Positions 4,373 to 53,256 of a stretch of 56,321 nt of DNA are shown here, in pieces; within the stretch, counting starts at the first letter, position 1, and every line of letters begins with the position of its first letter. Under the pieces are notes generated by a model. The model did not search any database, had not been told where the DNA came from, and worked only from the letters and a program-made list of their open reading frames with translations. This stretch comes from Acidobacteriota bacterium (lineage in GTDB: Bacteria; Acidobacteriota; Vicinamibacteria; Vicinamibacterales; JAMQPK01): assembly GCA_031395755.1 (NCBI GenBank), contig JANNJO010000029.1, positions 1-56,321 on the forward strand, in the 5' to 3' direction. The position numbers and the translations under genes were made by a program.

Positions 4373-6612
4373 GCTGCCTTCTGTTTGAAGTGCTTTTCCA
4401 GGGCGCTGTTCCAAATGGTTTCGGCGTCGCTGACTGCCACGTCGATGAGGTTACGCCCATTGATGGAGACGCTGATCCGTGGGGTGCCGGTTGTGCCGAT
4501 TTCCAGAGCCGGGACGCCGAAGGCCTTGGCGCGGGCGAGGAGAGCCCCAGCCTGATCTCGCGCAACCGAGACAACGACGCGAGAGGCGGACTCCGAGAAC
4601 AACGCGGAGGTTGACATCCACGCGTCTGGCGCGGCAACCGCCGGAATGTCCACCTTCAACCCAATGCCGCCAGCGTCAAACGCGCACTCCGCAAGCGCGA
4701 CAGCCAATCCACCCTCGGCACAGTCGTGCGCGGATCGAATCAGGCATTCCCGAGCGACAGCCACAAGCAGCTGCTGAAGCGCCTTCTCGGCTGTCAAATC
4801 GACTTCAGGAGGGACACCGGCGACAAGGCGCTGGGTCACCTTGAGATACTCGCTGCCCCCGAGCTCGTGTCGTGTCTCACCGAGCAACACGACCACGTCG
4901 CCGCTGGCCTTGAAACTTCGTCCCAGCACCCTGCTCGCGTCCTCAATGAGGCCGACGACGCCAAGAACAGGAGTCGGATAAATCGCCTTCCCGTCAGTTT
5001 CGTTGTAGAGACTGACATTACCGCCGGTGATAGGTAACTCGAGCGCCTTGCAGGCAGCCGTGATGCCTTCAACAGCACGCGCGAACTGCCACATGATCTC
5101 GGGCCGCTCAGGATTGCCGAAGTTGAGGCAGTTGGTTGCGCCAATCGGCTCGCCGCCGGCGCACGCGACGTTGCGCGCGGCCTCCACGACTGCCAGGACG
5201 GCGCCACGATAGGGATCGAGATAGCAGTAGCGGCCGTTGCCGTCGACCGACAGGGCCAGCGCGCGATCCGTTCCCTTGATGCGGACGACGCCCGATCCCA
5301 TCCCGGGAAGCACCAGCGTATTGGTGCGAACCATGTGGTCGTACTGGCGGTACACCCACCGCTTGTTCGCAATCGCTGGCGAGGCGAGCAGCGCGCGCAG
5401 CGCGTCCACGTCCGAGACCGGCGGGCGCTCAGGGAGCGACAGCTTCTGCACCTCGTCCAGGTAGGCCGGCCTCTGCATCGGCCTCTTGTACATCGGGGCA
5501 TCATCTGTCAGCGCGCCCGTCGGAATTTCGGCAACGACCTCTCCCCGCTCGCGGACCCGCATCAGCCCATCGTCTGTCACCTCACCGATATGCGCCGCAT
5601 GCAGATCCCATTTCTCGAAAATCTCCTCGACCTCTCTCTCGCGGCCGCGCTTCACCACCAGCAGCATGCGCTCCTGCGATTCGGAGAGCATGATCTCGTA
5701 TGCCGTCATGCCGGTTTCGCGCTGCGGGACGTGCATGACGTCAATATCAATGCCGGCCCCGCCACGCGAGCCCATCTCGCAGGTCGAACACGTGAGGCCG
5801 GCCGCGCCCATGTCCTGAATACCAATCAGCGCATCACTCTTCATGACCTCGAGGCACGCCTCGAGGAGCAGCTTCTCCATGAAGGGATCGCCGACCTGCA
5901 CCGCCGGGCGCTTCTCAGCCGAGTTCTCGTCGAACTCCGCTGATGCCATCGTCGCACCGTGGATACCGTCCCGGCCGGTTTTCGAGCCCACGTAGTAGAC
6001 GGGATTACCGGTGCCCCTGGCGACTCCCTTGATGATCTCGTCCGCCCTGGCGATGCCGAGGCAGAAGACGTTCACGAGTGGATTTCCCGTGTAGCACTCT
6101 TCGAACGCGATCTCGCCACCGACGGTCGGAATGCCGATGCTGTTGCCGTACCCGGCAATGCCCGCCACGACACCTTCCATGTTCCGGCGCACGCGCGGAT
6201 CGTCGAGCTCGCCGAATCGCAGCGAGTTCATCAGCGCAATCGGGCGCGCCCCCATCGTAAAGATGTCGCGGATGATGCCGCCCACGCCGGTCGCCGCGCC
6301 TTGATACGGCTCGATGAACGAGGGATGGTTGTGCGATTCGATCTTGAAGACAGCGGCAAGGCCCTCGCCGATGTCGACCGCTCCGGCGTTCTCTCCAGGC
6401 CCCTGCAACACGCGGTGCCCGGTGGTCGGCAGATTGCGAAGATGCACCCGTGAGCTTTTGTAGCTGCAGTGCTCGGACCACATCACCGAGAAAATGCCGA
6501 GCTCGGTCAGGCTCGGCTCGCGCCCGAGCGACTGCACGACTCGCTGATACTCTTCGTCGTTCAGACCATGTCGCTGGAGCGCGGCCTTGTCGTGTGCGGG
6601 AGCGGCGCTCAT
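4369..6612 (-). CDS. purL: phosphoribosylformylglycinamidine synthase subunit II
   Basis: 747 aa; [27 protein letters not shown], and the duplicated PurM-like fold typical of small PurL. Followed by purQ/purS neighbours. Confidence 0.9.
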
Positions 6613-8922: not shown

Positions 8923-8948
8923 GTCGTCGATCGTCGATCGTTCATCGT

Positions 8949-10208
8949 CTAATTCAGATTAAGTCGCTCTCGCGGAAGTTGGAGCCCATTCACCTGCCCA
9001 AGCACCGTGGCGGCAAGCGACCCGTTCGAGAACAGCTCCACGGCCACGCGCTGGACGTCATCGGGCGATACGCTTTCGATACCCTGCAGCGTCTCATCGA
9101 GGCTGAACTGCCGGTCGAAATAAATTTCCTGGCGGGCCAGGTGCGACATCCGGCTCGACGTGTTCTCGAGGCTCAGCATCACGCTGCCCTTGAGGTGATC
9201 CTTCGCGCGACGCAACTCGCTGTCGGGCACCGGAGACTGCTTGATGATCTTCAGCTCTTCGACGACGAGGTCGATGACTTCGCCGACGGCCTCGTTCGCG
9301 CATCCCGCGTACACAGTGAGGTAGCCGGCATCGCGGTAGGCATTGATGCCTGAGAACACCGAGTACGCGAGGCCGCGCTTCTCGCGGATGTTCTGAAACA
9401 GCCGCGAGCTCATCGAACCACCGAGCATCGTGTTCATGACGTAACTCGCGTAGCGATCACTATGGTTCTGAGGGTAGCTGGGCGTGCCGAGACACACGTG
9501 GCTCTGTTCGAGCTCTTTATTGCGGATCACGACCTTCGGGACGACGTGCGGAGGCGCCCCGCCCTGCGGCCGCCCGGAAGACGGCATCGATCCGAACGCG
9601 TTCTCGAGCGCTTCGCGCAGCTGCGAGTGCTCGAGATTGCCTGCCGCCGAGATGATGACGTTCTCCGCCGCGTACGCGCCCCGGAAATGGTCGCGGAGTC
9701 GATCCTGCGTGATCGCTTCGACGGTGTCCTTGGTGCCGAGGATCGGCCGCCCCAGCGGGTGTCCTTCCCAGAACGCCTGCGTGAAAATCTCGTGGACGAG
9801 ATCGTCGGGCGTGTCCTCGACCATCTTGATCTCTTCGAGGATCACTTTCTTCTCCCGCTCGATATCGATCTCGTGAAACGCGGGCCGCAGGACGATATCG
9901 GAGAGGATGTCGACGGCGAGAGGCAGGTGTTCGTCGAGGACCTTCACGTAGTAGCTGGCGTATTCCTTCGCCGTGAACGCGTCGAGCTGCCCGCCGATGG
10001 AATCAACCGCCTGCGCGATCGCTTCCGCCGTGCGTGTCGCGGTGCCTTTGAAGAGCATGTGCTCCACGAAGTGCGCCATGCCGCTCTCGTCGTCCGTGTC
10101 GTGACGCGATCCACGCGTCAGCCACACGCCCAGGCTCACCGAGCGGACGTGGCTCATGGATTCAGTCACGAGACGAATCCCGTTGTCGAGTGCGTCGCGA
10201 ACAATCAT
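8949..10208 (-). CDS. M16 family zinc peptidase (insulinase-like)
   Basis: Inverted zinc motif HFVEHMLFKGT, 419 aa, two M16 half-domains. Only 26 nt upstream of purB. Confidence 0.8.
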   Translation of the reverse strand: MIVRDALDNGIRLVTESMSHVRSVSLGVWLTRGSRHDTDDESGMAHFVEHMLFKGTATRTAEAIAQAVDSIGGQLDAFTAKEYASYYVKVLDEHLPLAVDILSDIVLRPAFHEIDIEREKKVILEEIKMVEDTPDDLVHEIFTQAFWEGHPLGRPILGTKDTVEAITQDRLRDHFRGAYAAENVIISAAGNLEHSQLREALENAFGSMPSSGRPQGGAPPHVVPKVVIRNKELEQSHVCLGTPSYPQNHSDRYASYVMNTMLGGSMSSRLFQNIREKRGLAYSVFSGINAYRDAGYLTVYAGCANEAVGEVIDLVVEELKIIKQSPVPDSELRRAKDHLKGSVMLSLENTSSRMSHLARQEIYFDRQFSLDETLQGIESVSPDDVQRVAVELFSNGSLAATVLGQVNGLQLPRERLNLN

Positions 10209-15593: not shown

Positions 15594-16874
15594 GTGGGAA
15601 TGTCCCAAGCCCGCGTGGCCGTCCTGCGGACCAGTCCGGAGACCGTTCTCCGGGACTACCATCGTCTGCTGAACCTCGCCGGGTACCAGAACGTCATCGC
15701 CAAAGATGCCGACACGGCGCTGAAAGTCAACATCTCGTGGCACTTTTTCTTCCCCGGCAGCTCGACGACGCCCTGGCAGCTCGAGGGCGTGATTCGGGGG
15801 ATGAAGAAAGACGGCTACTCGCCCGAATTGATCCACGCGTGCCACAACCGCACGGTCGTCATCGATGCGCGCCTCGGCGAGCGCGAGAACAAGCAGCTTC
15901 CGGTGATCGAGGCGCATGGTCTGCGCAACATCCACACTTACGAAAGCGAAGAGTGGATCAACATCCGCGACGCGGTGGGCGACCTGACGAAGGAGTTTCT
16001 CTGCCTGAACGAGGTCTACCCGCAGGGCTTCATGATTCCGCGCCGGTTCATCGGCGAAAACATCATTCATCTCCCGACGGTTAAAACGCACGTCTTCACG
16101 ACGACGACCGGGGCAATGAAGAACGCGTTTGGGGGGCTGCTCAACGAGCGCAGGCATTGGACGCACCCCGTCATCCATGAAACGCTCGTCGATCTGCTGA
16201 TGATTCAGCAGAAGATCCACCGCGGAGTCTTCGCGGTGATGGACGGGACGTTCGCCGGCGACGGCCCGGGCCCGCGCTGCATGATCCCTTGCGTGAAGAA
16301 CGTGATTCTCGCCAGCGCCGACCAGGTCGCCATCGACGCGATTGCCGCCAGGCTGATGGGGATGGATCCGCTATCGATCAAGTTCATCCGCCTGGCGCAT
16401 GAGCGAGGCCTTGGCTGCGGCGATCCCCGCGACATCGAAATCGTCGGCGATCAGGACGCGGCCGCCGAGAATTGGCATTTTGCGGGGCCGTTCCGGAAGA
16501 TGACCTTCGCGGCCCGCATGCAGCACAAGATCTATTGGGGGCCATGGCGCAAGCCGGTCGAATGGTCCTTGAAAACCGTTCTCGCCCCCTGGGCGTACGC
16601 CGCCAGCGTGGTGTACCACGACAGCTTCTGGTACCCCTTGAAAGCGAAGGGGTTGATGCGCGAAGTGATGGAGAGCCCGTGGGGCAGGTTATTCCGCGGC
16701 TGGGAATCGGCGGTCGCTGATGAGAGCGGCTATCCCAAGGTGGGCGGCGAGCCGGCGGACATCGAGCGCACGGGGCTGAGGGCGCTCGTCCGATCGATCG
16801 GAATTCTGGGAACGTGCCTGAAGGAAGCACCTGAGTTTGCGGCGCGCCGGCGGGTCCAACACACGAAGGTATGA
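15594..16874 (+). CDS. DUF362 domain protein
   Basis: VAVLRTSPETVLRDY...LKVNISW, LPTVKTHVFTTTTGAMKNAFGGL, DGTFAGDGPGP, ILASADQVAIDAIAARLMG follow the DUF362 pattern. The start could be GTG 15594 or ATG 15600. Confidence 0.7.
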   Translation: MGMSQARVAVLRTSPETVLRDYHRLLNLAGYQNVIAKDADTALKVNISWHFFFPGSSTTPWQLEGVIRGMKKDGYSPELIHACHNRTVVIDARLGERENKQLPVIEAHGLRNIHTYESEEWINIRDAVGDLTKEFLCLNEVYPQGFMIPRRFIGENIIHLPTVKTHVFTTTTGAMKNAFGGLLNERRHWTHPVIHETLVDLLMIQQKIHRGVFAVMDGTFAGDGPGPRCMIPCVKNVILASADQVAIDAIAARLMGMDPLSIKFIRLAHERGLGCGDPRDIEIVGDQDAAAENWHFAGPFRKMTFAARMQHKIYWGPWRKPVEWSLKTVLAPWAYAASVVYHDSFWYPLKAKGLMREVMESPWGRLFRGWESAVADESGYPKVGGEPADIERTGLRALVRSIGILGTCLKEAPEFAARRRVQHTKV

Positions 16875-16931
16875 GGGCAGAGGGCAGAGGGCAGAAATAC
16901 ATCTGCCCTCTGCCCTCCTACCTCTGCCCTG
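16873..16931. repeat. heptamer-repeat hairpin, (GAGGGCA)3 facing (TGCCCTC)n
   Basis: 16880..16895 pairs perfectly (16 bp) with 16902..16917 around the loop AATACA. A further 6 bp (16874..16879 with 16925..16930) follows after a 7-nt bulge. It overlaps the DUF362 stop and ends 17 nt before the next start codon. There is no U-tract. Confidence 0.85.
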
Positions 16932-27762: not shown

Positions 27763-28094
27763 GAGAAGGAAGAAGTAGGAAGTAAGACGGGGAACCGTAA
27801 CTGAAATTTCAACTTCGACCTCGAGCGGCGTTTGCGCGCGCGGTTTGTAGGGCGGTCCCGAAAATCCTTCGCAGTTGTTGTGCTTCCAACAGCAACTCGG
27901 TATCCGATGCGACATCAGCGTCTCGCATGTATTCGAGCCACACGACTGATTCGTCCACTTCTTCGACCACTGTTCCCAGTTTTGCGATGAACTCGGCGCG
28001 CGACCGTCCGCGCTGGGCCGCATGGTAATTCAGCGAAGCAACCGGATGGATCGCAGTTCTGCACTCCCTTCTTCCTTCTCCCTTCTTCCTTACT
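27763..28094. repeat. split heptamer-repeat element: purine-unit arm (27763..27786) and pyrimidine-unit arm (28064..28094) bracketing a gene remnant
   Basis: The left arm is GAGAAGG AAGAAGT AGGAAGT AAG. The right arm is CTCCCTT CTTCCTT CTCCCTT CTTCCTT ACTCC. 27763..27775 is the exact reverse complement of 28068..28080 (13 nt). The right arm overlaps the response-regulator stop codon. Confidence 0.6.
27809..28060 (-). pseudogene. truncated four-helix-bundle protein gene (23S rRNA intervening-sequence protein / Avd family)
   Basis: My own minus-strand translation gives RTAIHPVASLNYHAAQRGRSRAEFIAKLGTVVEEVDESVVWLEYMRDADVASDTELLLEAQQLRRIFGTALQTARANAARGRS* (stop at 27809..27811). This matches the ..GANYR.A.RARS.AEFI.KL.IV.EE.DET.YWLELL.. 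core of the family. There is no start codon and about 50 N-terminal residues are missing. It is not in the supplied ORF track; ORF 27688..28023 is a different frame. Confidence 0.7.
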
Positions 28095-29541
28095 CCGGTA
28101 CAGATACCGCCTCCCTCTCGCCGCTCTCCTGCTCCGCTCTCGATTCGCTCGTCCGCTTCCGTCGCGGCCGGATGTCGTAACGCTTGATCATTTCGTTCAA
28201 CGTCGTCGGCTTGATTCGGAGAAGCTCCGCGGCGCGCTTCTGAACGCCGCCGGCCGCCTCGAGGGTCGACTCGATGAGGCGCTTCTCAAAATCGGTAATC
28301 ACGTCCTTGAACGAAATGCCTTCCGGCGGAACAACGAATCGCGGCATCTGGAAGATCGTGGGCCGCCCGATGTGATCGGGCAGCAGATCGGGACCGATAC
28401 GGCGGCCGGTCGAAAGAACCACGGCTCGCTCGATCACGTTTTCCAGCTCCCGGACGTTGCCGGGCCAGTCGTAGGACATCATGATATCCAGCGCGTCGGG
28501 CACCAGCTCGAGGTCCGGCTTGCGATTTTCCTCGCCGTACTTCTCGATGAAGTGCTGCACGAGCAGCGGAATATCGTCCTTGCGATCGCGCAGAGGCGGC
28601 AGCACCACGTTGACGACGTTCAGCCTGTAGAAGAGATCCTCGCGAAAGCGCCCCTCCTCCATCGTCTTCTTCAGGTCCACGTTGGTGGCGGCGACAATCC
28701 GCACATCGACCTTGATGACTTCCATGCCGCCCAGGCGCATGAACTCCCGCTCCTGCATGACGCGGAGCAGCTTGGCCTGAGTCTCGAGCGGGATGTTGCC
28801 GATTTCGTCGAGGAAAATGGTTCCCTTGTCCGCGAGGTCGAAGAGCCCCTTCTTGGGGTAGACGGCGCCGGTAAACGCGCCTTTCACGTGCCCGAAGAGC
28901 GTCGACTCCAGCAGATCGGGCGGAAGGTTGCCCGAATTCACCGTCACGAAAGCGCGGTCTTTCCGCTGCGAGTGCGTGTGAATCGCGCGCGCGACGAGCT
29001 CCTTGCCAGTGCCGCTCTCGCCCTGAATGAGGATCGTCGAACGGCTCGGCGCCGCCTGGATGATCAGGTCGAACACCCGGCGCATCGCCGGACCGCGCCC
29101 GACGATGTTGTCGAAGTGGCTGTACTGTTCCTGGATGTTCTGCCGCAGCGGGCGATTCTCGTTGACCAGGCGACGGAGACCGAGGGCGTTCTTGACGACC
29201 ACCATCACCTCGTCGTTCTTGAACGGCTTGGTGATGTAGTCGAAGGCCCCGCGCTTCATCGACGTGATGGCATTCTCGACCGATGCGTACGCCGTCACCA
29301 TGATGACCGCCAGCTCATCGTCCAGCTTCTTGAGCGATTCGAGCGTGGTCATCCCATCAATGCCGGGCATCATGAGGTCGACAATCGCGGCGTCGAACGG
29401 GATATTGCGCGCCAGCTCGATGCCTTCCTCTCCGCTGGCGGCGAGACGCACGGAGTACCCCTCGCCCTTCAGCAGGGTTTCGAGGATCTCGCGCATGATT
29501 TCTTCGTCGTCGACTACGAGAATCGAACCATTCTTCTGCAT
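28090..29541 (-). CDS. sigma-54-dependent response regulator (NtrC family)
   Basis: Receiver domain ILVVDDEEIMREIL...DLMMPGIDG. AAA+ domain GESGTGKELVARAIH with GAFTGA. C-terminal Fis-type HTH AAELLRIKPTTLNEMIKRY. Start chosen at MQKNGS, 9 nt after the kinase stop. Confidence 0.9.
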   Translation of the reverse strand: MQKNGSILVVDDEEIMREILETLLKGEGYSVRLAASGEEGIELARNIPFDAAIVDLMMPGIDGMTTLESLKKLDDELAVIMVTAYASVENAITSMKRGAFDYITKPFKNDEVMVVVKNALGLRRLVNENRPLRQNIQEQYSHFDNIVGRGPAMRRVFDLIIQAAPSRSTILIQGESGTGKELVARAIHTHSQRKDRAFVTVNSGNLPPDLLESTLFGHVKGAFTGAVYPKKGLFDLADKGTIFLDEIGNIPLETQAKLLRVMQEREFMRLGGMEVIKVDVRIVAATNVDLKKTMEEGRFREDLFYRLNVVNVVLPPLRDRKDDIPLLVQHFIEKYGEENRKPDLELVPDALDIMMSYDWPGNVRELENVIERAVVLSTGRRIGPDLLPDHIGRPTIFQMPRFVVPPEGISFKDVITDFEKRLIESTLEAAGGVQKRAAELLRIKPTTLNEMIKRYDIRPRRKRTSESRAEQESGEREAVSVPE

Positions 29542-29549
29542 ATGCTCAC

Positions 29550-32447
29550 TCAATTCCTGGCCGCGCCCGGACGCGCGGACGCGACAGACTCCGGCAACGA
29601 CACGGTGAACCGCGTCCCCTGACCGACTGCGCTCTGGCATGTCAACGTGCCCTCGTGCTCGCGCACAATGCCGTAGGTAATCGAGAGCCCGAGGCCCGTA
29701 CCCTTGCCGATCAGCTTGGTCGTGAAGAACGGGTCGTAAATCCGCGAAAGGTGCTCGCTGGGAATTCCGGAACCCGTGTCTCCAACTTCCGCCAGCACGC
29801 CCCCACCCTCGATGCGAGTCGACACCGACAACCAGCCGCCCTTCGGCATGGCATCTCGTGCGTTGAGAAACAGATTCAGGAACACCTGCTGCAGCTTGTG
29901 CTCAATGCCTGTGACGAGGGCCGGCGAGGGGCACAGCTCGCGCCGTACCTTGATTTTGCCGGCCAAGAGCTGAGGCTCCAGGAGCGACAGCACATCGCTG
30001 ATGATGGCGTTCAGATCCACAGGACCGGTTTCCTCAGGGTTCGATCCGCTCGAGCGAGACAGGTTGAGCAGCCCGTTGACGATCTTGGCGGCGCGGAACG
30101 TCTGCTGTTCGATCTTCTCGAGCATCCGCGTCCTCGGGTCGTCGGGATCCGCGTTGCTCAACAGCATCTGCGTGAAGCTCGAGATGCCGGTCAGCGGCGT
30201 GTTCACTTCGTGCGCCACGCCTGCGGCCAGCAGGCCGACCGAGGCCATCTTGTCGGAAATCTGGAGCTGCTCCTCGAGGTGCACGCGCTCGGTGACGTCT
30301 TCGATGATGATGATGTTGCCCACCGTCGACATCGCGAACTGGCCGCTCGGCGCCTTCAGCGGGGCGGTCGCGATGTTCACGCGCAGCCGCTCGCCGGCTT
30401 TCGCTGCACGCCCCGCGAGCGGAACGCGGTAGAGCGACGCGCCGGCGGGAGCTTCGCGCTGCGCCGCCCGCAGCGCTTCGACAAACGGCCCGTCCAATAC
30501 CTCTTCGAGCTTGTGCCCGATGGCCTCTGTCGCCGACAGACCGTACATATCCGCGAGCGCGCGATTCCACCGAAGGACGCGGCCGTCCAAATCCTCGACG
30601 ACGAGCCCGTTATCGAGCGACTCCACGATGTTCTCGTTGAACTCCTGGAGCCGCTGCAGTTCGCTCGCTTTCAGCTGGAGCTGCCGGTAGAGGCGCCCGT
30701 TCTCGAGCGCCGTCGCGACATGGCTGCCAACGGCTGACAGCAGACCCAAGTCCTCGCTGCTGAGCGGCTCGCCCTGGCCCCGCTGGCCGAGCGCAAGCAC
30801 TGCAATCGTTCCACCCTTCGACACGCACGGCACGAAGTAGTGCACGCCGCGGAGCCGCCAGAACGCAATCTCCTCCGGCGGAAACGCGCCGTGGAGGGTC
30901 GGATCGTCGAGCGACAGCGCCATCCCGCCGGCCAGGCTCGCGGCGAGTTGCGAGTGCCGGCTCAAGCCGGGCACCGAAAGATCGCCGAACCCTTCGGCGC
31001 GGATGACTTCGTAGTTGCCGGACGCTTCGTCGACCAGCAGCAGCGCCATCCGATCGATCACGAACGTGTCGCGAACACGCGCGACAAGCCGCTCCCCGAG
31101 CCGATCGAGATCGAGGTCGCTGTTGAGGTCGCGCGCAAATCCGACGAGCGCTCTGCGATAGTCGTATTGGTCCCGATAGAAGGCGCGGTCGAGCGCGTTC
31201 TGAATGGCGCTCTTGACGGGGCTGAAGAGCAGCACGACCACGATCGTCGCGAGCATCGCGATGATCATGTTGTGACGCTCGGCCGCGTCGAGAAACACGA
31301 CGCCCGCAAGCCGGAGCAGTGTGGCGTAAATCGTGAAGATGGCGAGAATCACCGCCGTGTACACCAGGCTGCGCTTGACGATGACCTCGACATCCATCAG
31401 CCGGTAGCGGATCAGCGCCGACGCGAAGGCGAGCGGCACGAGGCTGAGCGGAATCACCGACAGCTCCATCGGCAGCGACGTGCGCAGGCCCAGCGCATAC
31501 GGCAGGGCGTAGCCGAACGCGAATGGGCCAGCCCCGAATGCGGTGCCCCAGATGATCCACCGCAGCTGGCGGCGTGCGGTCGCCGACCGCACGCGATCCA
31601 TGGCGCGCATCAGCACGACCAGGCCCGCAATCATGAAGATCGAGAGATACAACGGCTCGAGTTGATCGAGCAGCGTCAGCACGCGCGAATAGAGCGGCGT
31701 GTTTGTGGAGAGCCGGCCGACGGCGAGCACGTTCACGGCGAACAGCAGGACAGCGGCGGCATAAAACAGCGCCACGAGACGCCGTCCGCGGCCCCGAATC
31801 CATGCGGATGGACGATCGGGAAAGACGAGCGTGAAATGCAGGAACAGTGGTGCGAGGAGGAGGGTGGCGACGACATCCGCCCAGTAGAAGTACCAGTCGA
31901 GCCGATCGAGCCGGCTGAACGAGAACGTCAGTGTGCCGAAAAACGCGAGGCACAGCCAGAAGAAGTGCAGGGTCGCAGGATCGCTGGGCCGGCGCAGCCG
32001 CACGGAGGCGCCGACGAGCAGCGTGAAGATTCCGATCGCGGCGCCGATGACGTACAGCGTGGGGTTGCCGCCCGGAACAGGTGCGACGTCAACGTTGAGC
32101 ATGGTGCGCTCGCCCAGGCGGAGCACCGTATAGGACAGCGGGTCTGACTCCGTTGCCTGACCCAGCGCGTGATGAACCGCATCGACGCTCTCCAGAGGAA
32201 CGCCGTCGATAGCGATGAGCACATCGCCCGGCCGGATACCGGCAGCCTTCGCGCCGCCGTGCGCCGCCACGTCCGCAGCTGTGACACCCTCGGGGCGCGC
32301 TTCCCACAGCACGCCGTCCTCGAGCTTGTGCGAGGTCGCGCGCACCGCGATGTTCAGGGCGCCGAAGCAAAGCAGGACTCCGACCAGGGCAAAGAGGCTC
32401 CACCCTGCCAACGGACGCCGGTGCGTTCGACGGGGTTGACTTTTCAT
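29550..32447 (-). CDS. sensor histidine kinase: N-terminal PDZ, multi-TM region, GAF, PAS, HisKA, HATPase_c
   Basis: One TM segment, then a PDZ-like GIRPGDVLIAIDGVPLESVDAV...YTVLRLGERTM. About 7 hydrophobic helices follow. GAF-like region (DRMALLLVDEASGNY...), PAS (NIVESLDNGLVVEDLDGRVLRWNRAL), H-box GVAHEVNTPL, N-box LNLFLNARDAM, G-boxes GDTGSGIP and GTGLGLSI. Confidence 0.85.
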   Translation of the reverse strand: MKSQPRRTHRRPLAGWSLFALVGVLLCFGALNIAVRATSHKLEDGVLWEARPEGVTAADVAAHGGAKAAGIRPGDVLIAIDGVPLESVDAVHHALGQATESDPLSYTVLRLGERTMLNVDVAPVPGGNPTLYVIGAAIGIFTLLVGASVRLRRPSDPATLHFFWLCLAFFGTLTFSFSRLDRLDWYFYWADVVATLLLAPLFLHFTLVFPDRPSAWIRGRGRRLVALFYAAAVLLFAVNVLAVGRLSTNTPLYSRVLTLLDQLEPLYLSIFMIAGLVVLMRAMDRVRSATARRQLRWIIWGTAFGAGPFAFGYALPYALGLRTSLPMELSVIPLSLVPLAFASALIRYRLMDVEVIVKRSLVYTAVILAIFTIYATLLRLAGVVFLDAAERHNMIIAMLATIVVVLLFSPVKSAIQNALDRAFYRDQYDYRRALVGFARDLNSDLDLDRLGERLVARVRDTFVIDRMALLLVDEASGNYEVIRAEGFGDLSVPGLSRHSQLAASLAGGMALSLDDPTLHGAFPPEEIAFWRLRGVHYFVPCVSKGGTIAVLALGQRGQGEPLSSEDLGLLSAVGSHVATALENGRLYRQLQLKASELQRLQEFNENIVESLDNGLVVEDLDGRVLRWNRALADMYGLSATEAIGHKLEEVLDGPFVEALRAAQREAPAGASLYRVPLAGRAAKAGERLRVNIATAPLKAPSGQFAMSTVGNIIIIEDVTERVHLEEQLQISDKMASVGLLAAGVAHEVNTPLTGISSFTQMLLSNADPDDPRTRMLEKIEQQTFRAAKIVNGLLNLSRSSGSNPEETGPVDLNAIISDVLSLLEPQLLAGKIKVRRELCPSPALVTGIEHKLQQVFLNLFLNARDAMPKGGWLSVSTRIEGGGVLAEVGDTGSGIPSEHLSRIYDPFFTTKLIGKGTGLGLSITYGIVREHEGTLTCQSAVGQGTRFTVSLPESVASARPGAARN

Positions 32448-37000: not shown

Positions 37001-39870
<2,870 letters not shown>

Positions 39871-39873
39871 GGA

Positions 39874-39939
39874 GTAGGGATTGGTGATTGGGGACTAGCT
39901 CTGCCCGCTAGTCCCTAATCCCTGGTCCCCAATCCCTGC
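39874..39939. terminator. heptamer-repeat hairpin filling the convergent gpmI / small-ORF spacer (candidate bidirectional terminator)
   Basis: Left units are AGGGATT GGTGATT GGGGACT AGC. Right units are GCT AGTCCCT AATCCCT GGTCCCC AATCCCT. The inner stem 39886..39899 pairs with 39907..39920 (14 bp including one G:T), with a 7-nt loop. The outer stem 39876..39884 pairs with 39929..39937 (9 bp), separated by an internal loop. There is no clean U-tract. Confidence 0.6.
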
Positions 39940-45597: not shown

Positions 45598-47099
45598 TTG
45601 CGCACCCTGTACGCGGCGGCGAGTTCGATCCCGCTCCGTTTGCCATCGACAATTCGCCGGGTCGGCGGCTGGAGCGGTGCCCCGAACGACGTCGATGCTT
45701 CAAGCGCTCGAAGAAAACTCTCTGATGCGTCACGCGCCCGGACGAAATCGGGGCCGGCCGCGAATGCTTCGATCGCGACGCTCCACGCGTCGCCGTCAGG
45801 CAGGGCGCGCAACGATTCCACAGTCACGTCACTCGGCGCGGCATTCGCCAACGCCTCGAGCAGTCGAGCCATCGATGGCCCCTGGGCGTCCAGCGCGCTG
45901 AGCGCAGCGCGCTGAACCGGTTCGGTCTTCGGGAGCACCTGCGAGGCAGCGAGCGCGGAGACGGCCGGCTGCAACAGCGAGATCTCGCGTCGCACTAACG
46001 TCAACTGACGATCGGCTTCGGCGCGGGCGGCGCTTGCCTGCGCGTAGAGGAAGGCACCGAGCGCAACCGCGGCCGCGGTCCCAGCCACGAAAATGCGCGG
46101 GCCTGTTTGAGACGGGCGGTCGGCGGTAATCTCCACGGGTAGGAGATTCACAGGCGGAGGCTCGGCCGCGATCGAAGATGCCAGGCGGTAGGTTGCCGCC
46201 TGTTCGCCAAAACCCACAGGAAGCGATGCTGTGTCGATGCCTTCCAGGGTATCGAGTGTTTCCACTTCGATGTTCAATCGCTCGATCAGCGGCGCGGTCA
46301 GCGATCGAATTTCCGGCATGTCGCCGCACAGGAGAATCTGTGAAACCTCTTCTTCCCAGTACTGCTTCAGGTAGAGAAACGAGCGACGCAGCTCCGCGGA
46401 CAATCGTCCGGCGAGATCTTCTCGATTCATCGGCGCGGGCGCACCGAGCGTCGGCGTGGCGTAGCCCCAGTCAAGATCGCGCCCGTACAGCAGGGACCCG
46501 TTGCTGAAGATGCCAAGCGCCGACTGTGTAACACCGAGGGCCACGTGTGCGTGGACCTCTCCTGGCAGCGAGGGCCGGCGTAATCTCGCCTGCGACCAGA
46601 GCGCGCCACACGGGGTCGTCACACCCTCGATTTCGAAACCCGCTTCGACGAGCGGCCTCAGCCGCTCCCGTACGTCCTGGGAGCCCGCGGCGAAGAACGA
46701 GACTTCCGTTTTCGAGTGGTGGCCCGGCTCGCCGCGCGTCGATCCGATCGTCGTGGCCACGGTGACCTCGGCGTCCGTCATCCCCAGCGCGGAGGCGCCG
46801 TGGTGTCGCACCATCGATTCGAGCTCGGATGCCTGGCCCGACGGCAGCAGCACGTACTGGTGGCTGCTCCTGACCTCCCACAGATTCACCCACGCGCGAC
46901 GCGGAAACGCCTTCCGCTCGACAAGCACCTTCAGCTCCGCCGTCAGCGCCCTGCTGTCGGCACTGGAAAGCGATGCGAAGTGATGGACGCGCAGCGTGCC
47001 GGGGTCGCCCTTGCGGCGGCGTCCGGACGTCTCAGCGTCGACGACGATGCATCTGGCAGGAGACAGGTCTATTCCGGTCCGTCGCACACGTGGCCCCAC
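45594..47099 (-). CDS. PilM-PilN fusion (type IV pilus/MSHA MshI-like assembly protein)
   Basis: Actin-like N-terminal domain starting GIDLSPARCIVVDAE. The PilN hallmark VNLLP is followed by a TM (IFVAGTAAAVALGAFLY) and a periplasmic domain. GTG start; 4-nt overlap with the PilO-like gene. Confidence 0.6.
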   Translation of the reverse strand: MGPRVRRTGIDLSPARCIVVDAETSGRRRKGDPGTLRVHHFASLSSADSRALTAELKVLVERKAFPRRAWVNLWEVRSSHQYVLLPSGQASELESMVRHHGASALGMTDAEVTVATTIGSTRGEPGHHSKTEVSFFAAGSQDVRERLRPLVEAGFEIEGVTTPCGALWSQARLRRPSLPGEVHAHVALGVTQSALGIFSNGSLLYGRDLDWGYATPTLGAPAPMNREDLAGRLSAELRRSFLYLKQYWEEEVSQILLCGDMPEIRSLTAPLIERLNIEVETLDTLEGIDTASLPVGFGEQAATYRLASSIAAEPPPVNLLPVEITADRPSQTGPRIFVAGTAAAVALGAFLYAQASAARAEADRQLTLVRREISLLQPAVSALAASQVLPKTEPVQRAALSALDAQGPSMARLLEALANAAPSDVTVESLRALPDGDAWSVAIEAFAAGPDFVRARDASESFLRALEASTSFGAPLQPPTRRIVDGKRSGIELAAAYRVRK

Positions 47100-47140: not shown

Positions 47141-49147
47141 CTAGCCCGCCTCCTCGTACTCGGTCTTCAATTTGGCAATCACGCTGGGATCGGCCAGCGT
47201 GGTGGTATCGCCCAGCGCCTTGCCTTCGGCGATATCCTTCAAAAGGCGCCGCATGATTTTGCCCGAGCGGGTCTTGGGAAGATCCGCTGCGAAGAGAATG
47301 TCCTCGGGCCGCGCGATCGCCCCGATTTTCTTGACAACATGCTCTTTGAGCTCAGCCATCAGCGCCGGGCTCGCGACGTTCCCTTCCTTCAGGATGACGA
47401 ACGCTGAAATGGCCTGCCCCTTCAGCTCGTGCGCGCGGCCGACGACGGCGGCCTCCGCCACTTTCGGGTGATCGACGAGCGCGCTCTCGATTTCCATCGT
47501 CCCGATCCGATGTCCCGCCACGTTAATCACGTCGTCCACGCGGCCGAGCACCCAGAAATATCCGTCTTCGTCGCGCTTGGCGCCATCGCCCGTAAAGTAC
47601 GTGGCGCGATCCCATTTGCTCCAGTACTGCGTCACGAAGCGCTCGGGATCGCCGTAGATTCCTCGAAGCATCGCGGGCCACGGCCGGGTCAGCGCAAGGA
47701 GCCCGCCCCCGACTGCAATCGGCTCGCCGGATACCGTCCGGATTTCTGCTTTGATGCCTGGAAAGGGCTGCGTCGCAGAACCCGGCTTGAGCCGCGTGAT
47801 CCCAGGCAGCGGCGTGATCATGATCATTCCGGTCTCCGTCTGCCACCACGTGTCGACGATCGGGCACCGCTCGCCGCCGATGTTCTTGTGGTACCAGATC
47901 CACGCTTCGGGGTTGATGGGCTCACCAACCGATCCCAGCAGCCTCAGACCCGACAGGTTGCGGCGCTTCGGCCAGTCGGTGCCCCACTTCATGAACGCGC
48001 GGATCGCCGTCGGCGCGGTGTAGAAGATGGTCACGCCGTACCGCTCGATGATCTCCCACAGCCGGTCTTTCTGCGGCCAGTCCGGTGCCCCTTCGTACAT
48101 CACGACAGTGGCGCCGTTGGCGAGAGGGCCATAGACAACATAACTGTGGCCCGTGACCCACCCGATATCGGCGGTACACCAGTATACATCGTCTTCCTTA
48201 AGATCGAAGACCCACTTCGCCGTCGCGTACGTGCCGGTGAGATATCCGCCGGTCGTGTGCATGATGCCCTTGGGCTTCCCCGTCGTGCCGGACGTGTAAA
48301 GAATGTAGAGAAGGTCTTCGGAGTCCATCGGCTCGGGCGCGCAGTCCAAGGGTGCCTTCGCAAGTAGCTGATGCCAGTCATGCTCGCGCACTTGACGGGC
48401 TTCTGGCTCCGGGCTTCGGACTTCCGGCCTGGAGTCTGGAGCCTGGAGCCTGGAGTCCGCTGCCTGGAGTCTGCGAAGCACGATCATGTGTTCAATCGAA
48501 GGCGTACCTTCGACGGCTTCGTCCGCGATTTTCTTGAGCGGCACGACCGAGCCCCTTCGATATCCACCATCGGCGGTCACGAGCACCTTGCACTGGGCGT
48601 CGTTGATGCGGTCGCGCAGCGACTCGGCGCTGAATCCGCCGAACACAATGCTGTGCGGCGCGCCGATCCGCGCGCAGGCGAGCATCGCGATAGCGAGCTC
48701 GGGCACCAGGGGCATGTAGATCGCCACGCGATCGCCCTTTCTGACCCCGAGCGATTTCAGGACGTTGGCACACGCGCTGACCTGGCGGTAGAGATCGAAG
48801 TACGTGAGCGTCCGGCGATCGCCGGGCTCGCCTTCCCAGATGATGGCGGCTTTGTTCCGGCGCGCGGTCTTGACGTGTCGATCGACGCAATTGACCGACG
48901 CATTGATCTGACCGCCGACGAACCACTTCGCATGCGGTGGATTGGTCCAGTCGAGAACCTTCGTCCACGTGCGGGTCCACTCGAGCTCGGACGCAAACTT
49001 CGCCCAGAAGCCTTCGTAATCACGCTCGGCTTCTTCGTAGGGTGTCGTGTCGCCGACGATGGCCGTTGCGCGGAACTCGGAGGGGGGCTCGAACACGCGG
49101 TCCTCATGGAGGAGCGCCGAAATTTCGGGATCGACTGGGTCGGACAT
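47141..49147 (-). CDS. acs: acetyl-CoA synthetase
   Basis: [14 protein letters not shown]-binding motif, [31 protein letters not shown]. 668 aa, with an extra repeat-encoded loop (see 48396..48475). Confidence 0.95.
48396..48475. repeat. heptamer-repeat imperfect hairpin inside the acs coding sequence, in frame
   Basis: GGCTYCN units (48398..48427) face CTGGAGY units (48428..48475). 48396..48427 pairs with 48428..48459 as 24 Watson-Crick pairs, 6 G:T pairs and 2 mismatches out of 32 (my hand count). It encodes [26 protein letters not shown] on the minus strand. Confidence 0.8.
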
Positions 49148-49167: not shown

Positions 49168-50262
49168 TTACCTGCCGAGACTATCGACGCGCTTCCGTAC
49201 TTCTCCAACCAAGGCGGGGTAGCCGGCGGCACCATGCTGCAGGAACGCGCGATAGTGAACGAGTGCCCGATCTCTGTTGCCCGTCTCGTCTTCGAGCAGC
49301 GCAAAGTTGTAGTGCGCCTCGGCGTTGCGCGTGTCGATCTCCAGCGCGCGGACGAGCGCGGCGCGGGCGCCTTCGCGGCGCCCCGCTTCTCTCTCGACCG
49401 TCGAGAGGTTCACAAGCGACTCGACGTTCCTGGAATCGATCGCCAGCGCCGTGTGGAACTCTGACGCAGCCATATCCAGCTTGCCCTGATTCAGGTAGGC
49501 CACGCCGAGGTTGTTGCGCGCCCGCGCGTAACGCGGTTCGATGGCGATGGCGCGCTGAAATTCCTTGACGGCGTCCTCCACAAGCCCCTTGTCGCGATAC
49601 AGCAGCCCCAGGTTGTTGTGCGCTTCGGCGTTGAGGTCGTCGCGCTGCAGCAGCTGCTTGTAATGGAAGAGCGCGTTGGCGAAGTCGCCCATGCGCTGGT
49701 ACATGAGGGCACGCCCAAAATGGTCCTCGCCGGTCGTGACCGTCGCGCTGCTGACACCGGCCGCCGTGGACAGCGCGGTGCGTGACGGCGCGCCCGTCGG
49801 CGGCGTCGGCGCACTCGCCGACACCTCGGGACGCCGCGAGGTCTGAACGATCGGCTGAGTGGCAGGAAGCCTGTCGGCAGCGGCCGCAGGCGGCGGCTTG
49901 GCCGCGGATGATTGGGGTGCGACAAGTGCGATCGGTGCGGCGGGTGCGACAGGCTTGCCCGCCGTAGCGCCTGAAGGCGCGGAGGCGGGCGGTGCCGAGG
50001 CGGGGGCGTTGTACACCACCGTCGGATTCGGCGTCAGATACGCCTTCGCCGTCCAGATGACGACGGCCCACAACACGATCGCGCACAGGAGACCGGCCGC
50101 CAGATAGCCAAGGAAACGTTTGAGTCGACTGGACGGCGAGGCAGGGTTGAATCGCCCATAGCCGAGCGTCTGCAGGACGACGTCGGTTTGCGCCGCATTG
50201 GGATTGGGTCGCGACATCTCTGGTCCACGCCCGCGACGCAGCGCGTCAAGGATGATGCTCAT
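49168..50262 (-). CDS. GspB/ExeB-like N-terminus, TM segment, P/A-rich linker and TPR repeats (MshN-like)
   Basis: [13 protein letters not shown] is the characteristic GspB-type N-terminus. One TM ([18 protein letters not shown]). About 5 TPR units ([42 protein letters not shown]...). Confidence 0.65.
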
Positions 50263-50271
50263 TACTCCTGG

Positions 50272-51624
50272 TTAGTCCTCGATCACATACGCGTCGCTGA
50301 ACGCAGCCATCTCGTGCAGCCGGACGGCTTCGGCTTTCGCCTCCGCCAGCGTCGCGAACGTGCCTACCAGCACGCGGCGCCATTCGCCTCGCGCGCGCAA
50401 ATCCACGTCCTCCAGCCGGACATCGTAGCCCTGGCCCTGCAGCTGCCGCAACGCGGCCTCGAGCCGCGCACTCGCCGCTGAGTCGGCGCGCGACACGTCC
50501 GCCATCGGAATCGAGGCCGCGAGTACCGAATATCGTGGTGCCGGCTGTTCCGCCGCCGGCGTCAATTGTTCCGGCGCCGGCGCGGGGGCGGCGTCAACGG
50601 ACGCTGCGGCCGGAACAGGCGCCTCCACGTGAAACGTCTCCGGCGCAGGCGCTTCCGTATCAGCAGTGGCCGAGGCACGGAGAACGGGCGCCACGAAGCT
50701 ACCCGCCACGGCTAGCGAGACCGTCGCACCTGCTGCGGCAACCACCACCGAGGCGCGGCGGCGAAACCAGCCGAAGCGTGAAGGCCGGTCTTCGACCAGC
50801 TCGAGATTCTCGGCGGCCTGATACACCATGTCCGGCGACACACGGTTGGCGCGTGCGGAGTACGCCGCGAGCAGCGAGCGATCGCACACGAGGTTCACCA
50901 GCCGCGGAATGCCGCCCGTCCGCCGGTGCACCATGTCGAGCGCCTTCGGCTGGAACGTCACCGACGCGGATCCGCCGGCGATCATCAGACGATGAGACAC
51001 ATACGACGCCACTTCGTCGCGGGTCAACGGGCGCAGCTGATAGCGGATGGAGACGCGCTGATCGAGCTGGCGCATCTGCGGCGCCTTCAGCAGCGGCTGA
51101 AGGTTCAGCTGTCCCACGAGCACGATCTGCAGCAGCTTGTCCTTGTCGGTCTCGAGGTTCGACAGGATGCGAATCTGCTCGAGCACGGGGATCGGGAGGT
51201 TCTGCGCTTCGTCGATGATCAGCACGGCGGTGGCGCGCAGGGGCAGCAGGCTGAGCAGAAAATCGTAGATGGCCTCGATCAGCTCCTGCTTGCTGACGTT
51301 CGCGAGGCGGCCTCGCTTGACGTCTTCGCGTGACACGACGCCGAAGTCCTGCAGAATCAGCTTCAGCAGATCTTCCTCGGAAAGGAACGGGTTCAGCACG
51401 AGCGCCGTGAACGTGTTCCTGTCGATCTCCTCCAGCAGCACGCGGCAGAGAGTGGTCTTGCCGGTGCCGATGTCGCCGGTGATGACGACGAACCCTTCGC
51501 GGCGGCGAACGGCGTACTGAAGCAGCTCGTACGCATTGGCGTGCGACTCGCTCTTGAAGAGATACTTTGGGTCCGGCGTCAGGCTGAACGGCTTTTCGGT
51601 GAACCCGTAATAGTCTTCGTACAT
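50272..51624 (-). CDS. ExeA/GspA/MshM-like AAA+ ATPase with a TM segment and a C-terminal SPOR domain
   Basis: YYGFTEKPFSLTPDPKYLF, Walker A GDIGTGKTT, Walker B LIIDEAQNL. TM VVVAAAGATVSLAVAGSF. The C-terminus YSVLAASIP...GYDVRLEDVDLRARGEWRRVLVGTFATLAEAKAEAVRL fits a SPOR fold pattern. Confidence 0.75.
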   Translation of the reverse strand: MYEDYYGFTEKPFSLTPDPKYLFKSESHANAYELLQYAVRRREGFVVITGDIGTGKTTLCRVLLEEIDRNTFTALVLNPFLSEEDLLKLILQDFGVVSREDVKRGRLANVSKQELIEAIYDFLLSLLPLRATAVLIIDEAQNLPIPVLEQIRILSNLETDKDKLLQIVLVGQLNLQPLLKAPQMRQLDQRVSIRYQLRPLTRDEVASYVSHRLMIAGGSASVTFQPKALDMVHRRTGGIPRLVNLVCDRSLLAAYSARANRVSPDMVYQAAENLELVEDRPSRFGWFRRRASVVVAAAGATVSLAVAGSFVAPVLRASATADTEAPAPETFHVEAPVPAAASVDAAPAPAPEQLTPAAEQPAPRYSVLAASIPMADVSRADSAASARLEAALRQLQGQGYDVRLEDVDLRARGEWRRVLVGTFATLAEAKAEAVRLHEMAAFSDAYVIED

Positions 51625-51633
51625 ATCGTTCTC

Positions 51634-53112
51634 CTAACGAACGCGTTCCAGCTCTTTGGCGACAGACGGCGCCACGCGCGCGGGGGTCATGATCGTCGGC
51701 GTCAGCAGAATCACGAGATCGGTCTTGCGGCGGCTCATCGTCTCGCCGCGGAAGATGGCGCCGATTCCCGGCAGGTCGCCGAGGAACGGCACCTTTCGTA
51801 CCTCGCGGCGCAGCCGCTCCTCCATCAGGCCTGCAATGACGATCGTTTCCTTTTCGTGAACGCGCACCATCGTGTCCGCCTCGCGCACGCTGAGAATCGG
51901 CACCGTGTCCCCGAACCGCGAGGTGGCCTGACCCGTCCGCTCGGTCAGACTCGGCGTGATGCTCATGTTGATCATGCCGTCGCTTGAGATCTGTGGCGTG
52001 ACGCTCAGCACGACCCCCTCCGTAATCGCCTGCGGCTCGACCGTCGTCTGAAGAATCCGTCCCGACACGCCGTCGGTCTGCGTTGTCGTCCTGAAGAACA
52101 CGTCCTGCGTGCCGACACGCATGATGGCGGGCTCGTTGTTGAGCGCGTTCACGGTCGGGCTGGCCATGACGTTGACTTTTCCTTGCGTGGCAAACGCGTT
52201 GAGGAGCCCGGTGAAGTCCTTGATGTTGAGGCCCGCGGTGAAGGTGCCGCCAGAGGTCGGCACGACGTTCTGCGTCAGCGATACCGCGTCGCCTGCGCGC
52301 TCGATGACGAGACTCCAGTTGATGCCGGCCGAGAACTCGTCGCTGAGCGTCACCTCGATGACCTTCGCCTGGATCTGCACCTGGCGCGTCGCGCGGTTCT
52401 GCACGGCTTCGAGATAGAGCTGGATCTGATCGAGCCGGTCTGGATAGTCGGTGGCCTGCAGCAAGGCCGCCTTCTTGTCCATGTTGAAGCGCCCGTCGGG
52501 CGACAGCAGCGTCTGCACACCGGCAGACACGTCGCTGAAGATGTCGCCGTTGTCCGAGCCGGTGACCTCCGCCGAGCTCCCCTGGCCGCCGGCCTGCGTT
52601 CCCGGATTCATTCCCGACGCGCCTGACGGCGTAATGGAGTTCGAGGCGGCCAGCGTGCGCGACCCCGAGCGGCGTGTCACGACGTAGTTCAGGTCGAAGC
52701 GGCGTGTTTCAAATCGGCGCTTGAACACGCGGATGACGTTCCCCTGCATCGAGTAGTCGAAACCATGCGGCTGCAGGATCATCTCGAGCGCCTGACGCAG
52801 GGTGACATCTTTGAGGTCGCCGCGAAACGTGCCCTGCACGTCCGGGTCGGGCACGACGCTGAGCCTCGTGTCCCGAACGAGCATGAGCAGCAGATCGGTG
52901 ATGGGCGTCGAATCGGAAAGCGTGATCGTGACAGGACGCGTACTGTCGAGATCGCTTCCCTGCTGGCGCTCGTCGAGTTGGGTCACCGCGAGCGGCCGAA
53001 GCGGCGTCTGGCTGGTTTGGGCCGGCGGCGCCGGCACCTGAGCGGCGCCCTGGACGGTTGCCATGAGCAGCACCGCCACCGCGCCGATGCGGATCCGCCG
53101 AATCACAAACAC
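51634..53112 (-). CDS. secretin (GspD/PilQ/MshL family)
   Basis: Signal peptide. Secretin C-domain VMASPTVNALNNEPAIMRVGTQ, VLSVTPQIS, VPFLGDLPGIGAIFR, DLVILLTPTI. Confidence 0.85.
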   Translation of the reverse strand: MFVIRRIRIGAVAVLLMATVQGAAQVPAPPAQTSQTPLRPLAVTQLDERQQGSDLDSTRPVTITLSDSTPITDLLLMLVRDTRLSVVPDPDVQGTFRGDLKDVTLRQALEMILQPHGFDYSMQGNVIRVFKRRFETRRFDLNYVVTRRSGSRTLAASNSITPSGASGMNPGTQAGGQGSSAEVTGSDNGDIFSDVSAGVQTLLSPDGRFNMDKKAALLQATDYPDRLDQIQLYLEAVQNRATRQVQIQAKVIEVTLSDEFSAGINWSLVIERAGDAVSLTQNVVPTSGGTFTAGLNIKDFTGLLNAFATQGKVNVMASPTVNALNNEPAIMRVGTQDVFFRTTTQTDGVSGRILQTTVEPQAITEGVVLSVTPQISSDGMINMSITPSLTERTGQATSRFGDTVPILSVREADTMVRVHEKETIVIAGLMEERLRREVRKVPFLGDLPGIGAIFRGETMSRRKTDLVILLTPTIMTPARVAPSVAKELERVR

Positions 53113-53182: not shown

Positions 53183-53256
53183 GGGGTTCAGGGGTTGGGG
53201 ATTAGGGATTGGGGATTAGGGATTAGGGATTAGGGACTAGGGCTTAGGGATTAGGG
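53183..53256. repeat. tandem heptamer array, (GGGATTR)n, about 10.5 units, one-armed
   Basis: The units are GGGGTTCA GGGGTTG GGGATTA GGGATTG GGGATTA GGGATTA GGGATTA GGGACTA GGGCTTA GGGATTA GGG. There are eleven G3-4 runs with 4-nt spacers. No complementary arm lies nearby. It sits between the ino1 stop (53304) and the secretin start (53112). Confidence 0.9.

Follow-up and report, generated by a model that had tools for sequence, protein, structure and literature searches.

Heptamer repeats, built from 7-nucleotide (nt) units, are over-represented in many bacteria according to an earlier survey, as cited in Rehm et al. 2015 (PMC4692102). Xanthomonas genomes carry 70-75 convergent GGGAATC pairs each (Rehm et al. 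2015, PMC4692102), Nostoc carries GGGGA(T/C)T repeats (PMC4692102), and Calothrix has three tandemly repeated heptanucleotides, as the same paper cites from previous work (PMC4692102). Intergenic TAACTGA heptamers occur in Beggiatoaceae and cyanobacteria, with a few in open reading frames (ORFs; PMC4679880). The documented phase-variable heptanucleotide tracts comprise 13-38 uninterrupted copies, a permissive survey threshold being 3 (PMC2651432); an intragenic example is the (AATTTTG)14 tract within hmw1a of H. influenzae, which is associated with a frameshift (PMC2651432). Two further kinds of sequence add peptide to proteins: Rickettsia palindromic elements (RPEs), which are in-frame palindromic insertions (reviewed in PMC10969869), and the tandem repeats of Borg elements, which create intrinsically disordered protein regions (PMC9879509). 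Here, we analyzed a 56,321-nt stretch of Acidobacteriota DNA (contig JANNJO010000029.1, positions 1 to 56,321; hereafter the window), in which acs, the gene for acetyl-CoA synthetase (Acs), holds an inverted pair of heptamer arrays. We favor the reading, with a probability of roughly 0.6, that this tract is a translated inverted heptanucleotide-repeat array, a passenger at the DNA level that is tolerated in a variable loop of the enzyme.

The host ORF comprises the domains PF16177, PF00501 and PF13193 (ACAS_N, AMP-binding and AMP-binding_C in Pfam), which places it among AMP-forming acetyl-CoA synthetases, and an 11-residue Acs sequence motif is found at residues 284-294 of the codon map. Homologs with 83-93% identity are named acetate--CoA ligase and belong to Vicinamibacterales (Acidobacteriota); solved Acs structures match the protein with E-values down to 9e-217 in a PDB search. 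Upstream of the motif, the tract is translated in frame as a 28-residue peptide, residues 225-252, and leaves the ORF intact. Its two arms, 48396-48427 and 48428-48459, abut with zero bases between them (inverted repeat I1 of the repeat finder). On the plus strand, they pair through 24 Watson-Crick pairs, 6 G:T pairs and 2 mismatches over 32 positions, and our recount is identical to that of the sequence-only reading, an earlier annotation of this DNA. On the acs mRNA strand, the same arms form 24 Watson-Crick pairs, no G:T pairs and 8 mismatches, with the six G:T sites becoming C/A mismatches. Tandem Repeats Finder (TRF) detects period 7 in both halves, with 4.7 copies and 73% matches at 48396-48428 and 6.7 copies and 72% matches at 48427-48473, as well as a period of 21 with 2.2 copies on the right arm. 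The latter coincides with a direct duplication (D1) in two copies, 86% identical, at 21-nt spacing. Sequence, TRF and codon map agree with the previous description of heptamer units that run up to 48475 and stay in frame within acs. The units are arranged head to tail, as in the heptanucleotide arrays of Xanthomonas and Nostoc. Coordinates of these and all other features are collected in the table below.

The tract is more than a product of chance. Folded as plus-strand RNA, it reaches -54.5 kcal/mol (z = -5.07), a value equaled by none of 200 shuffles, and as acs mRNA -38.1 kcal/mol (z = -2.56). Loopless palindromes with at least 24 Watson-Crick pairs out of 32 occur twice in the window, at the acs tract and at an intergenic hairpin centered on 16898, and resampling the window 100 times from a Markov model gave at most 23. 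Over 84 nt at the tract, identity at a lag of 7 is 0.64, compared with a window mean of 0.255 (standard deviation 0.056), making it the second strongest of five such places, and a single 20-mer, CTGGAGCCTGGAGCCTGGAG, has a chance expectation of 0.01 occurrences. Measured across the tract itself, identities are 0.61 at lag 7, 0.61 at lag 14 and 0.57 at lag 21, with 0.19 at lag 3 and around 0.2 at other lags. As lag 21 is no stronger than lags 7 and 14, the period of the DNA is 7, and we rejected a 7-residue protein repeat, which would have a period of 21 only. The architecture is a property of the DNA, with a period of 7 rather than 3 or 21.

The DNA of the loop was read in ten relatives that carry a version other than the short one (related loci are labeled L, homologous proteins P). 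Nine of them have lag-7 identities of 0.45-0.61 and the tenth, L081, has 0.32; a lag-3 signal is present in none. According to the sequence-only reading, an insertion would be refuted by relatives with a similar loop free of any period of 7, and this is not what the relatives show. On the coding strand, L164-L168 comprise about four GGCTCCR units, the unit type of arm A in the window, followed by a center (e.g. GGCCTGATCAGGCC, giving the peptide PDQA) and about four CCGRAGC units. The palindrome of the window is loopless because this center was lost and the two arms were kept. L162 and L163, whose Acs is 92% identical to that of the window, retain the second arm alone, which in L162 is nearly base for base common with arm B and in L163 reads (CGGAAGC)x4; the loop of L083 holds (GCCCAAA)x4.4. 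A common 26-pair consensus hairpin is shared by the six two-armed sequences, namely the window and L164-L168. All ten relatives are in frame, and their DNA differs in length by multiples of 3 nt. Likewise, every one of the 98 non-short homologs among 120 listed proteins is full-length and in frame, with P0002 the nearest relative among the matches listed at 93% identity. The array differs among relatives by in-frame changes only.

The tract occupies a hypervariable loop between two β-strands. Counted from RR to WH, this loop spans 35 amino acids (aa) in the window and 19 aa in short-loop relatives, e.g. RRTGAGELPEGKIKWHWWH, so the ortholog alignment sizes the insertion at ~16 aa beyond the short allele. 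The best PDB match, 8rpk, aligns with 17 gap positions across the loop, and the size of the insertion agrees with the sequence-only reading, which put the segment at about twice its length in E. coli Acs. A similarly short loop is found in more distant Acs proteins (160 loci among the matches listed, mostly with 64-76% identity); close relatives among these matches include L001, L002, L081-L083 and L115. Among the 120 listed homologs, which are 83-93% identical, the slice corresponding to residues 214-268 spans 38 to 56 aa with very diverse loop sequences, in line with the proposal that the insertion sits in a length-tolerant loop. The loop accommodates lengths from 9 to 27 residues and sequences unrelated to one another, at least three allele classes can be recognized, and none of the invariant alignment columns falls inside the loop. 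Because the array lies in this length-tolerant loop, it is translated. In an AlphaFold2 (AF2) model for which 40 homologs with 83% identity or more were used, the predicted local distance difference test score (pLDDT) falls below 50 at residues 229-251, flanked by confident strands at E220-224 and E254-257; the model is poor overall (mean pLDDT 46.9) and only this local contrast was used, which would fit a disordered excursion of the loop.

The loop region is a mosaic segment within the gene. Outside the loop, the array-bearing protein P0017 is 97.5% identical to P0087, which has the short allele, and at most 91% identical to other array-bearing Acs proteins; similarly, P0012 is 97.6% identical to the short-loop P0057. 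The loops of P0012 and P0017 are nearly the same. At the DNA level, L168 (array) and L082 (short) are 93-100% identical throughout acs except for ~170 nt at 54-71%, a divergent tract that comprises ~80 nt 5' of the loop and the loop itself and ends sharply at the HDWH codons. L165 (array) and L169, which has a 17-aa LAPADAAKASDLKLSSK allele, repeat this pattern, with identities of 82, 63, 58 and 55% in four segments of 60 nt each and 88-100% elsewhere. Taken over both pairs, the divergent tract measures ~170-240 nt and consists of the loop and ~80-100 nt 5' of it. Such sharp mosaics on near-identical acs backgrounds show that the loop region is exchanged between lineages by homologous recombination, moving between strains as a cassette of ~200 nt.

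Inverted heptamer arrays form a class that spans this soil Acidobacteria lineage, usually between genes, and the acs tract belongs to it. We ran TRF on the window and on 2.3 Mb of related loci. Counting arrays of at least 3 copies and a score of at least 36, the window contains seven at period 7, compared with one, two and one at periods 6, 9 and 12, and ~200 kb of the close clade contain 22 at period 7, compared with two at period 8 and three at period 9. The excess of period 7 over its neighbors is thus seen in 56 kb of the source genome and in orthologous neighborhoods. The close clade has 11 period-7 arrays per 100 kb, a figure that drops to 3.7 for other Acidobacteriota, 0.4 for Gemmatimonadota and 0.2 for Dehalococcoidia; these values describe orthologous neighborhoods around acs and not independent genome samples. 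Adjacent period-7 arrays are reverse complements of one another in 23 of 40 pairs. Of the 93 arrays at all loci taken together, 80 lie elsewhere than deep within a coding-like ORF, and the five other listed period-7 sites of the window are intergenic; the class as a whole is predominantly intergenic in location and the acs member is an exception. Unit sequences vary from site to site.

The intergenic members differ in strength and setting. The hairpin at 16873-16930 folds at -47.6 kcal/mol (z = -7.2), is followed by no T-run and lies between the ORF 15594..16874 and the next gene, both on the plus strand. The inverted pair at 39870-39937, which adjoins an ORF ending at 39870, consists of the units GGGAGTA, GGGATTG, GTGATTG and GGGACTA and, after a gap, CTAGTCC, CTAATCC, CTGGTCC and CCAATCC. 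The G-rich array at 53190-53256 adjoins a gene likely to encode inositol-1-phosphate synthase. Arrays of AGGGATT type are also present near this gene in L162 (5672), L163 (5639), L164 (8585) and L165 (4391), with differing copy numbers, and probably occupy the orthologous intergenic position upstream of it. In total, the 226 kb examined from the close clade contain 15 sites with AGGGATT-type arrays. We disregarded as insignificant one weak period-7 row of TRF at 45891-45912, inside an ORF, which has 3.1 copies with 73% matches and a score of 30.

Several arrays in relatives lie close to acs. L164 carries a loopless inverted array at 9895-9984, (TAGAAAG)7 / (ACTTTCT)5.6, with z = -7.9, and L163 carries one with a variant unit at 9914-9984; both lie just ahead of the acs start codon, within ~20 nt. 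The corresponding spacer of the window is 20 nt long and has no inverted array of this type. Directly after the acs stop codon, L127 (9297-9330) and, identically, L129 (2707-2740) have the row GGCTCCA, GGCTCCG, GGCTTCA, GGCCTGA, built of the same units as the acs tract, with a further array of related units in L127 at 4737-4757, 4.5 kb away; the Acs of both loci has an ordinary short loop, and a common origin of this post-acs array and the acs tract could not be distinguished from coincidence. L119 has three abutting near-perfect rows at 2874-3018, (GCAGCTC)6 (GTGGCTC)3 (GGGGCTC)8, followed by (CGAAGCG)x2.7, as if the unit had drifted step by step along one array. Beside acs in the window, 49168-53112 encodes a TPR protein, an ATPase with AAA_16/AAA_22 domains and a secretin-domain protein, an order that is kept in L162-L165.

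The acs array is not the only one that is translated. A hypothetical protein of ~265 aa, conserved in L162-L165, contains (GGGATTR)n and, beyond a spacer, (YAATCCC)n, both in frame and read as QGIRDLGLGIRG...EPITNPQPLITGP. It has an N-terminal hydrophobic segment, which from its sequence looks like a membrane anchor, and the array forms part of the linker that precedes a conserved C-terminal domain. Unit variants in this gene, such as GGGATCT, abolish the in-frame TAG of perfect units. A heptamer array passes through all three frames every 21 nt and is therefore readable only if its unit is free of stops in each of them, and for an inverted pair this condition extends to both strands. GGCTCCA/G, GGCTTCG and GGCTCTG have no stop in any of the six frames, in contrast to AGGGATT, TAGAAAG and CTAGTCC, which are not stop-free in all six. 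The acs array is tolerated because its unit has no stop in six frames, making either orientation readable.

Table. Features of the acs locus, of the other heptamer arrays in the window and of a second translated array in relatives
Feature	Position	Strand	Basis
acs, acetyl-CoA synthetase (acetate--CoA ligase), 668 aa, host gene	47141..49147	minus	ORF, Pfam, homologs, PDB
Arm A and extra units: ~6.7 AGGCTCC/AGACTCC coding-strand units (GGCTCCR type), R225-R240	48428..48475	minus	TRF, codon map
Arm B: CGGAAGT CCGAAGC CCGGAGC CAGAAGC on the coding strand (CCGRAGC type), P241-R251	48396..48427	minus	TRF, I1
21-nt direct duplication, three heptamers or seven codons, DSRLQAP / DSRLQAA	48427..48468		D1, TRF period 21
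Hypervariable loop, residues 227-252, between two β-strands, predicted disordered	48392..48469	minus	alignment, AF2
Recombining cassette, approximate	48371..48553	minus	bounds inferred from relatives
(TCGTCGA)x3.7, intergenic, takes up all 26 nt that separate two minus-strand ORFs	8924..8949		TRF; ORF ends 8922, 8949
(GAGGGCA)3, 6-nt loop, (TCTGCCC)~4, intergenic	16873..16930		TRF, fold
(CCTTCTT)x3.6, adjoins stop codon of ORF 28090..29640, intergenic	28067..28091		TRF, ORF map
Inverted AGGGATT-type pair, intergenic	39870..39937		sequence, DNA fold z = -4.85
(AGGGATT)x9.6, single orientation, G-rich, intergenic	53190..53256		TRF score 99
Hypothetical-protein gene with translated array, in relatives	L162 1689-2495; L163 1604-2407; L164 4633-5424; L165 262-1107	minus	called gene

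Compared with described systems, the window class most resembles the arrays of Xanthomonas and Nostoc: tandem 7-nt units with an excess of period 7, mostly intergenic, frequently in pairs of opposite orientation able to form stem-loops, and with the type of array kept and its length varying between relatives. The G-rich unit of (AGGGATT)n in the window is nearly equal to the quadruplex-forming repeats GGGGATT of Nostoc and GGGAATC of Xanthomonas, whereas the GGCTCCR unit of acs is not a G-quadruplex motif. The window class further differs in its host lineage, Vicinamibacterales within Acidobacteriota, in having many unit sequences instead of one dominant unit, and in that the acs copy and one copy in a hypothetical protein are intragenic, in frame and translated. 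Our literature search returned nothing specific on heptamer repeats in Acidobacteria or Vicinamibacter. Like the acs tract, the Borg and TAACTGA repeats are DNA-level repeats read as low-complexity, probably disordered peptide, with heptamers occasionally in ORFs; however, Borg repeats are perfect and direct, with genic units that are multiples of three, while the acs tract has a 7-nt unit, cycles through three frames and forms an inverted pair. What the acs case brings together is known in itself; new are the lineage and the setting, in which an inverted array of 7-nt units is translated in frame within a conserved housekeeping enzyme.

As the arms of the tract can form a hairpin, its pairing could itself be functional, acting in the acs mRNA as a translation pause or an RNase III/stability site, in an antisense RNA, or in DNA. 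The strength of the plus-strand fold, the presence of hairpins in six lineages and the pairing of all six G:T positions on the antisense strand of the window would speak for such a role, and the sequence-only reading had taken the last point as a pointer to antisense RNA. Its observation that these positions pair on the plus strand only, and are C/A mismatches in the mRNA, stands; the pointer finds no support, since relatives differ in which strand folds better and four of them have no hairpin. Antisense folds better in the window, L167 (antisense -54.7, sense -47.5 kcal/mol) and L168 (-51.5 and -34.6 kcal/mol), and sense folds better in L164 (sense -49.0, antisense -40.0 kcal/mol), L165 (-49.4 and -45.4 kcal/mol) and L166 (-43.7 and -31.8 kcal/mol), while L161, L162, L163 and L083 show no significant hairpin (z -0.6 to +1.1). 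The bias of the window towards the plus strand arises because one arm consists of CTCC-type units and the other of GAAG-type units. Support for compensatory evolution of the arms is unconvincing, with an unfavorable covariation term (+1.75) and changes on both sides in 4 of 26 pairs. Taken together, the tract lacks the conserved structure, compensatory changes and consistent strand of a structured RNA; no Rfam family matches it, and no promoter or terminator consensus was found on either of its strands. The hairpin is dispensable, being absent even from the 92% identical L162 and L163, and we consider a functional structure improbable. More improbable still is a contingency locus, in which gain or loss of one 7-nt unit would switch acs off or on, as the logic of the earlier annotation ran. 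With the hmw1a/hmw2a loci of H. influenzae, the tract does share a unit length indivisible by three within a coding sequence. Those tracts, however, are long, uninterrupted and strain-variable, and reside in surface or modification genes, whereas the longest perfect tract in acs is 20 nt or 2.9 units, its units match at 72-73%, and its host is a housekeeping metabolic enzyme, not one with a surface or restriction-modification function. With all ten relatives and all 98 non-short listed homologs in frame and full-length, that logic finds no support here.

A different origin would be a mobile palindromic element, akin to an RPE, a miniature inverted-repeat transposable element (MITE) or a REPIN, of which a dispersed, transposing copy inserted in frame in acs. 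RPEs and intragenic MITEs do resemble the tract, as in-frame palindromes in conserved metabolic genes that add a peptide to a protein that apparently stays functional. The arrays after the acs stop codon in L127 and L129 and 4.5 kb away in L127, the 15 AGGGATT-type sites and the occurrence of the array allele on two different backbones could be seen in the same light. RPEs, however, are dispersed families of ~150 bp with conserved sequence and peptide, whereas the acs tract consists of 64-80 nt of 7-nt units. There is no other GGCTCCR-type copy in the window, and outside acs the 2.3 Mb of related DNA hold two such sites, both in the lineage of L127 and L129. Units differ between loci, a better fit to local generation than to copying of a single element, and by eye we found no terminal inverted repeats, target-site duplications or conserved non-repeat core beyond the heptamer arms. 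New backbones are explained by homologous recombination that carries diverged flanks along, not by clean insertion, and a mobile element seems to us unlikely. About equally unlikely is adaptation at the protein level, in which the loop would be a selected, diversifying or regulatory disordered segment, such as a docking or phosphorylation site, with the DNA repeats as raw material. Recurring SP(K/E)P motifs, hypervariability with at least three allele classes, exchange of the cassette between near-identical genes, persistence of the array allele across the clade and the selected disordered regions that tandem repeats create in Borg elements are what such a reading would expect. Against it, the recurring motifs are encoded by the heptamers (SPKPEA is AGC CCG AAG CCC GAA GCC), 9 to 27 residues of unrelated sequence are all tolerated, the loop has no conserved residue, and recognition by hosts or phages is an unlikely source of pressure on a cytoplasmic enzyme such as Acs. 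Lastly, loopless palindromes can form in amplified metagenomic DNA, and a chimera from library preparation or assembly might mimic the tract; the ORF is intact, though, identical architecture occurs at the same codons in independent JGI and ENA assemblies, homologs with matching peptides come from NCBI records, and arm B recurs nearly base for base in L162, leaving an artefact as the least credible account of all.

We therefore return to a neutral, translated heptamer-repeat hairpin as the most likely nature of the acs tract. We propose that such arrays grow and shrink through replication slippage, and that intrastrand template switching may create the second arm or keep it like the first. Selection on acs would purge frameshifted variants and favor interrupted units, which would stabilize the tract. 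The Pro/Glu/Ser/Arg/Ala-rich peptide may be a disordered spacer with no specific role, and hairpin potential a by-product of how the array is constructed rather than a selected RNA or DNA structure. Several observations weigh against this account. Nearest relatives do not differ in the length of their loops by 7-aa steps, which account for 6 of 44 non-zero differences; with such steps unenriched, three-unit slippage is not the dominant mode, and we dropped it as such. The array persists across a clade in which Acs is only 83-93% identical, and its allele occurs on at least two backbones whose nearest relatives have a short loop; both persistence and spread could reflect selection instead of neutrality. 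A strong hairpin is kept in six lineages, with z between -2.4 and -5.1 on the better strand. The sampling of array densities around acs and the mean pLDDT of the structural model, which lends no confident support to solvent exposure of the loop, count on the same side.

A 7-base unit inside a gene should be poison, as a change by one unit shifts the frame, yet this array survives clade-wide in a central enzyme. It does so because its unit is free of stops, its units are interrupted and the loop tolerates 9 to 27 residues. The acs gene is shown neither to be switchable nor to be a source of new RNA; what the locus offers is a link between the excess of heptamer repeats in bacterial genomes, intergenic hairpin repeats and the birth of disordered protein segments. 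With array-loop and short-loop alleles on nearly identical gene backgrounds, it is also a tractable test case for neutrality and for recombination focused on hairpins. We speculate, tentatively and with more doubt than conviction, that self-renewing inverted heptamer arrays, possibly hundreds per genome, are a feature of Vicinamibacterales and, less markedly, of other Acidobacteriota, and that they arise locally with arbitrary units; stop-free ones could seed disordered segments in conserved proteins, and hairpin alleles would be spread, or removed, between strains by hairpin-focused recombination. If true, such arrays would be an undescribed source of innovation in protein loops and of local recombination hot spots.

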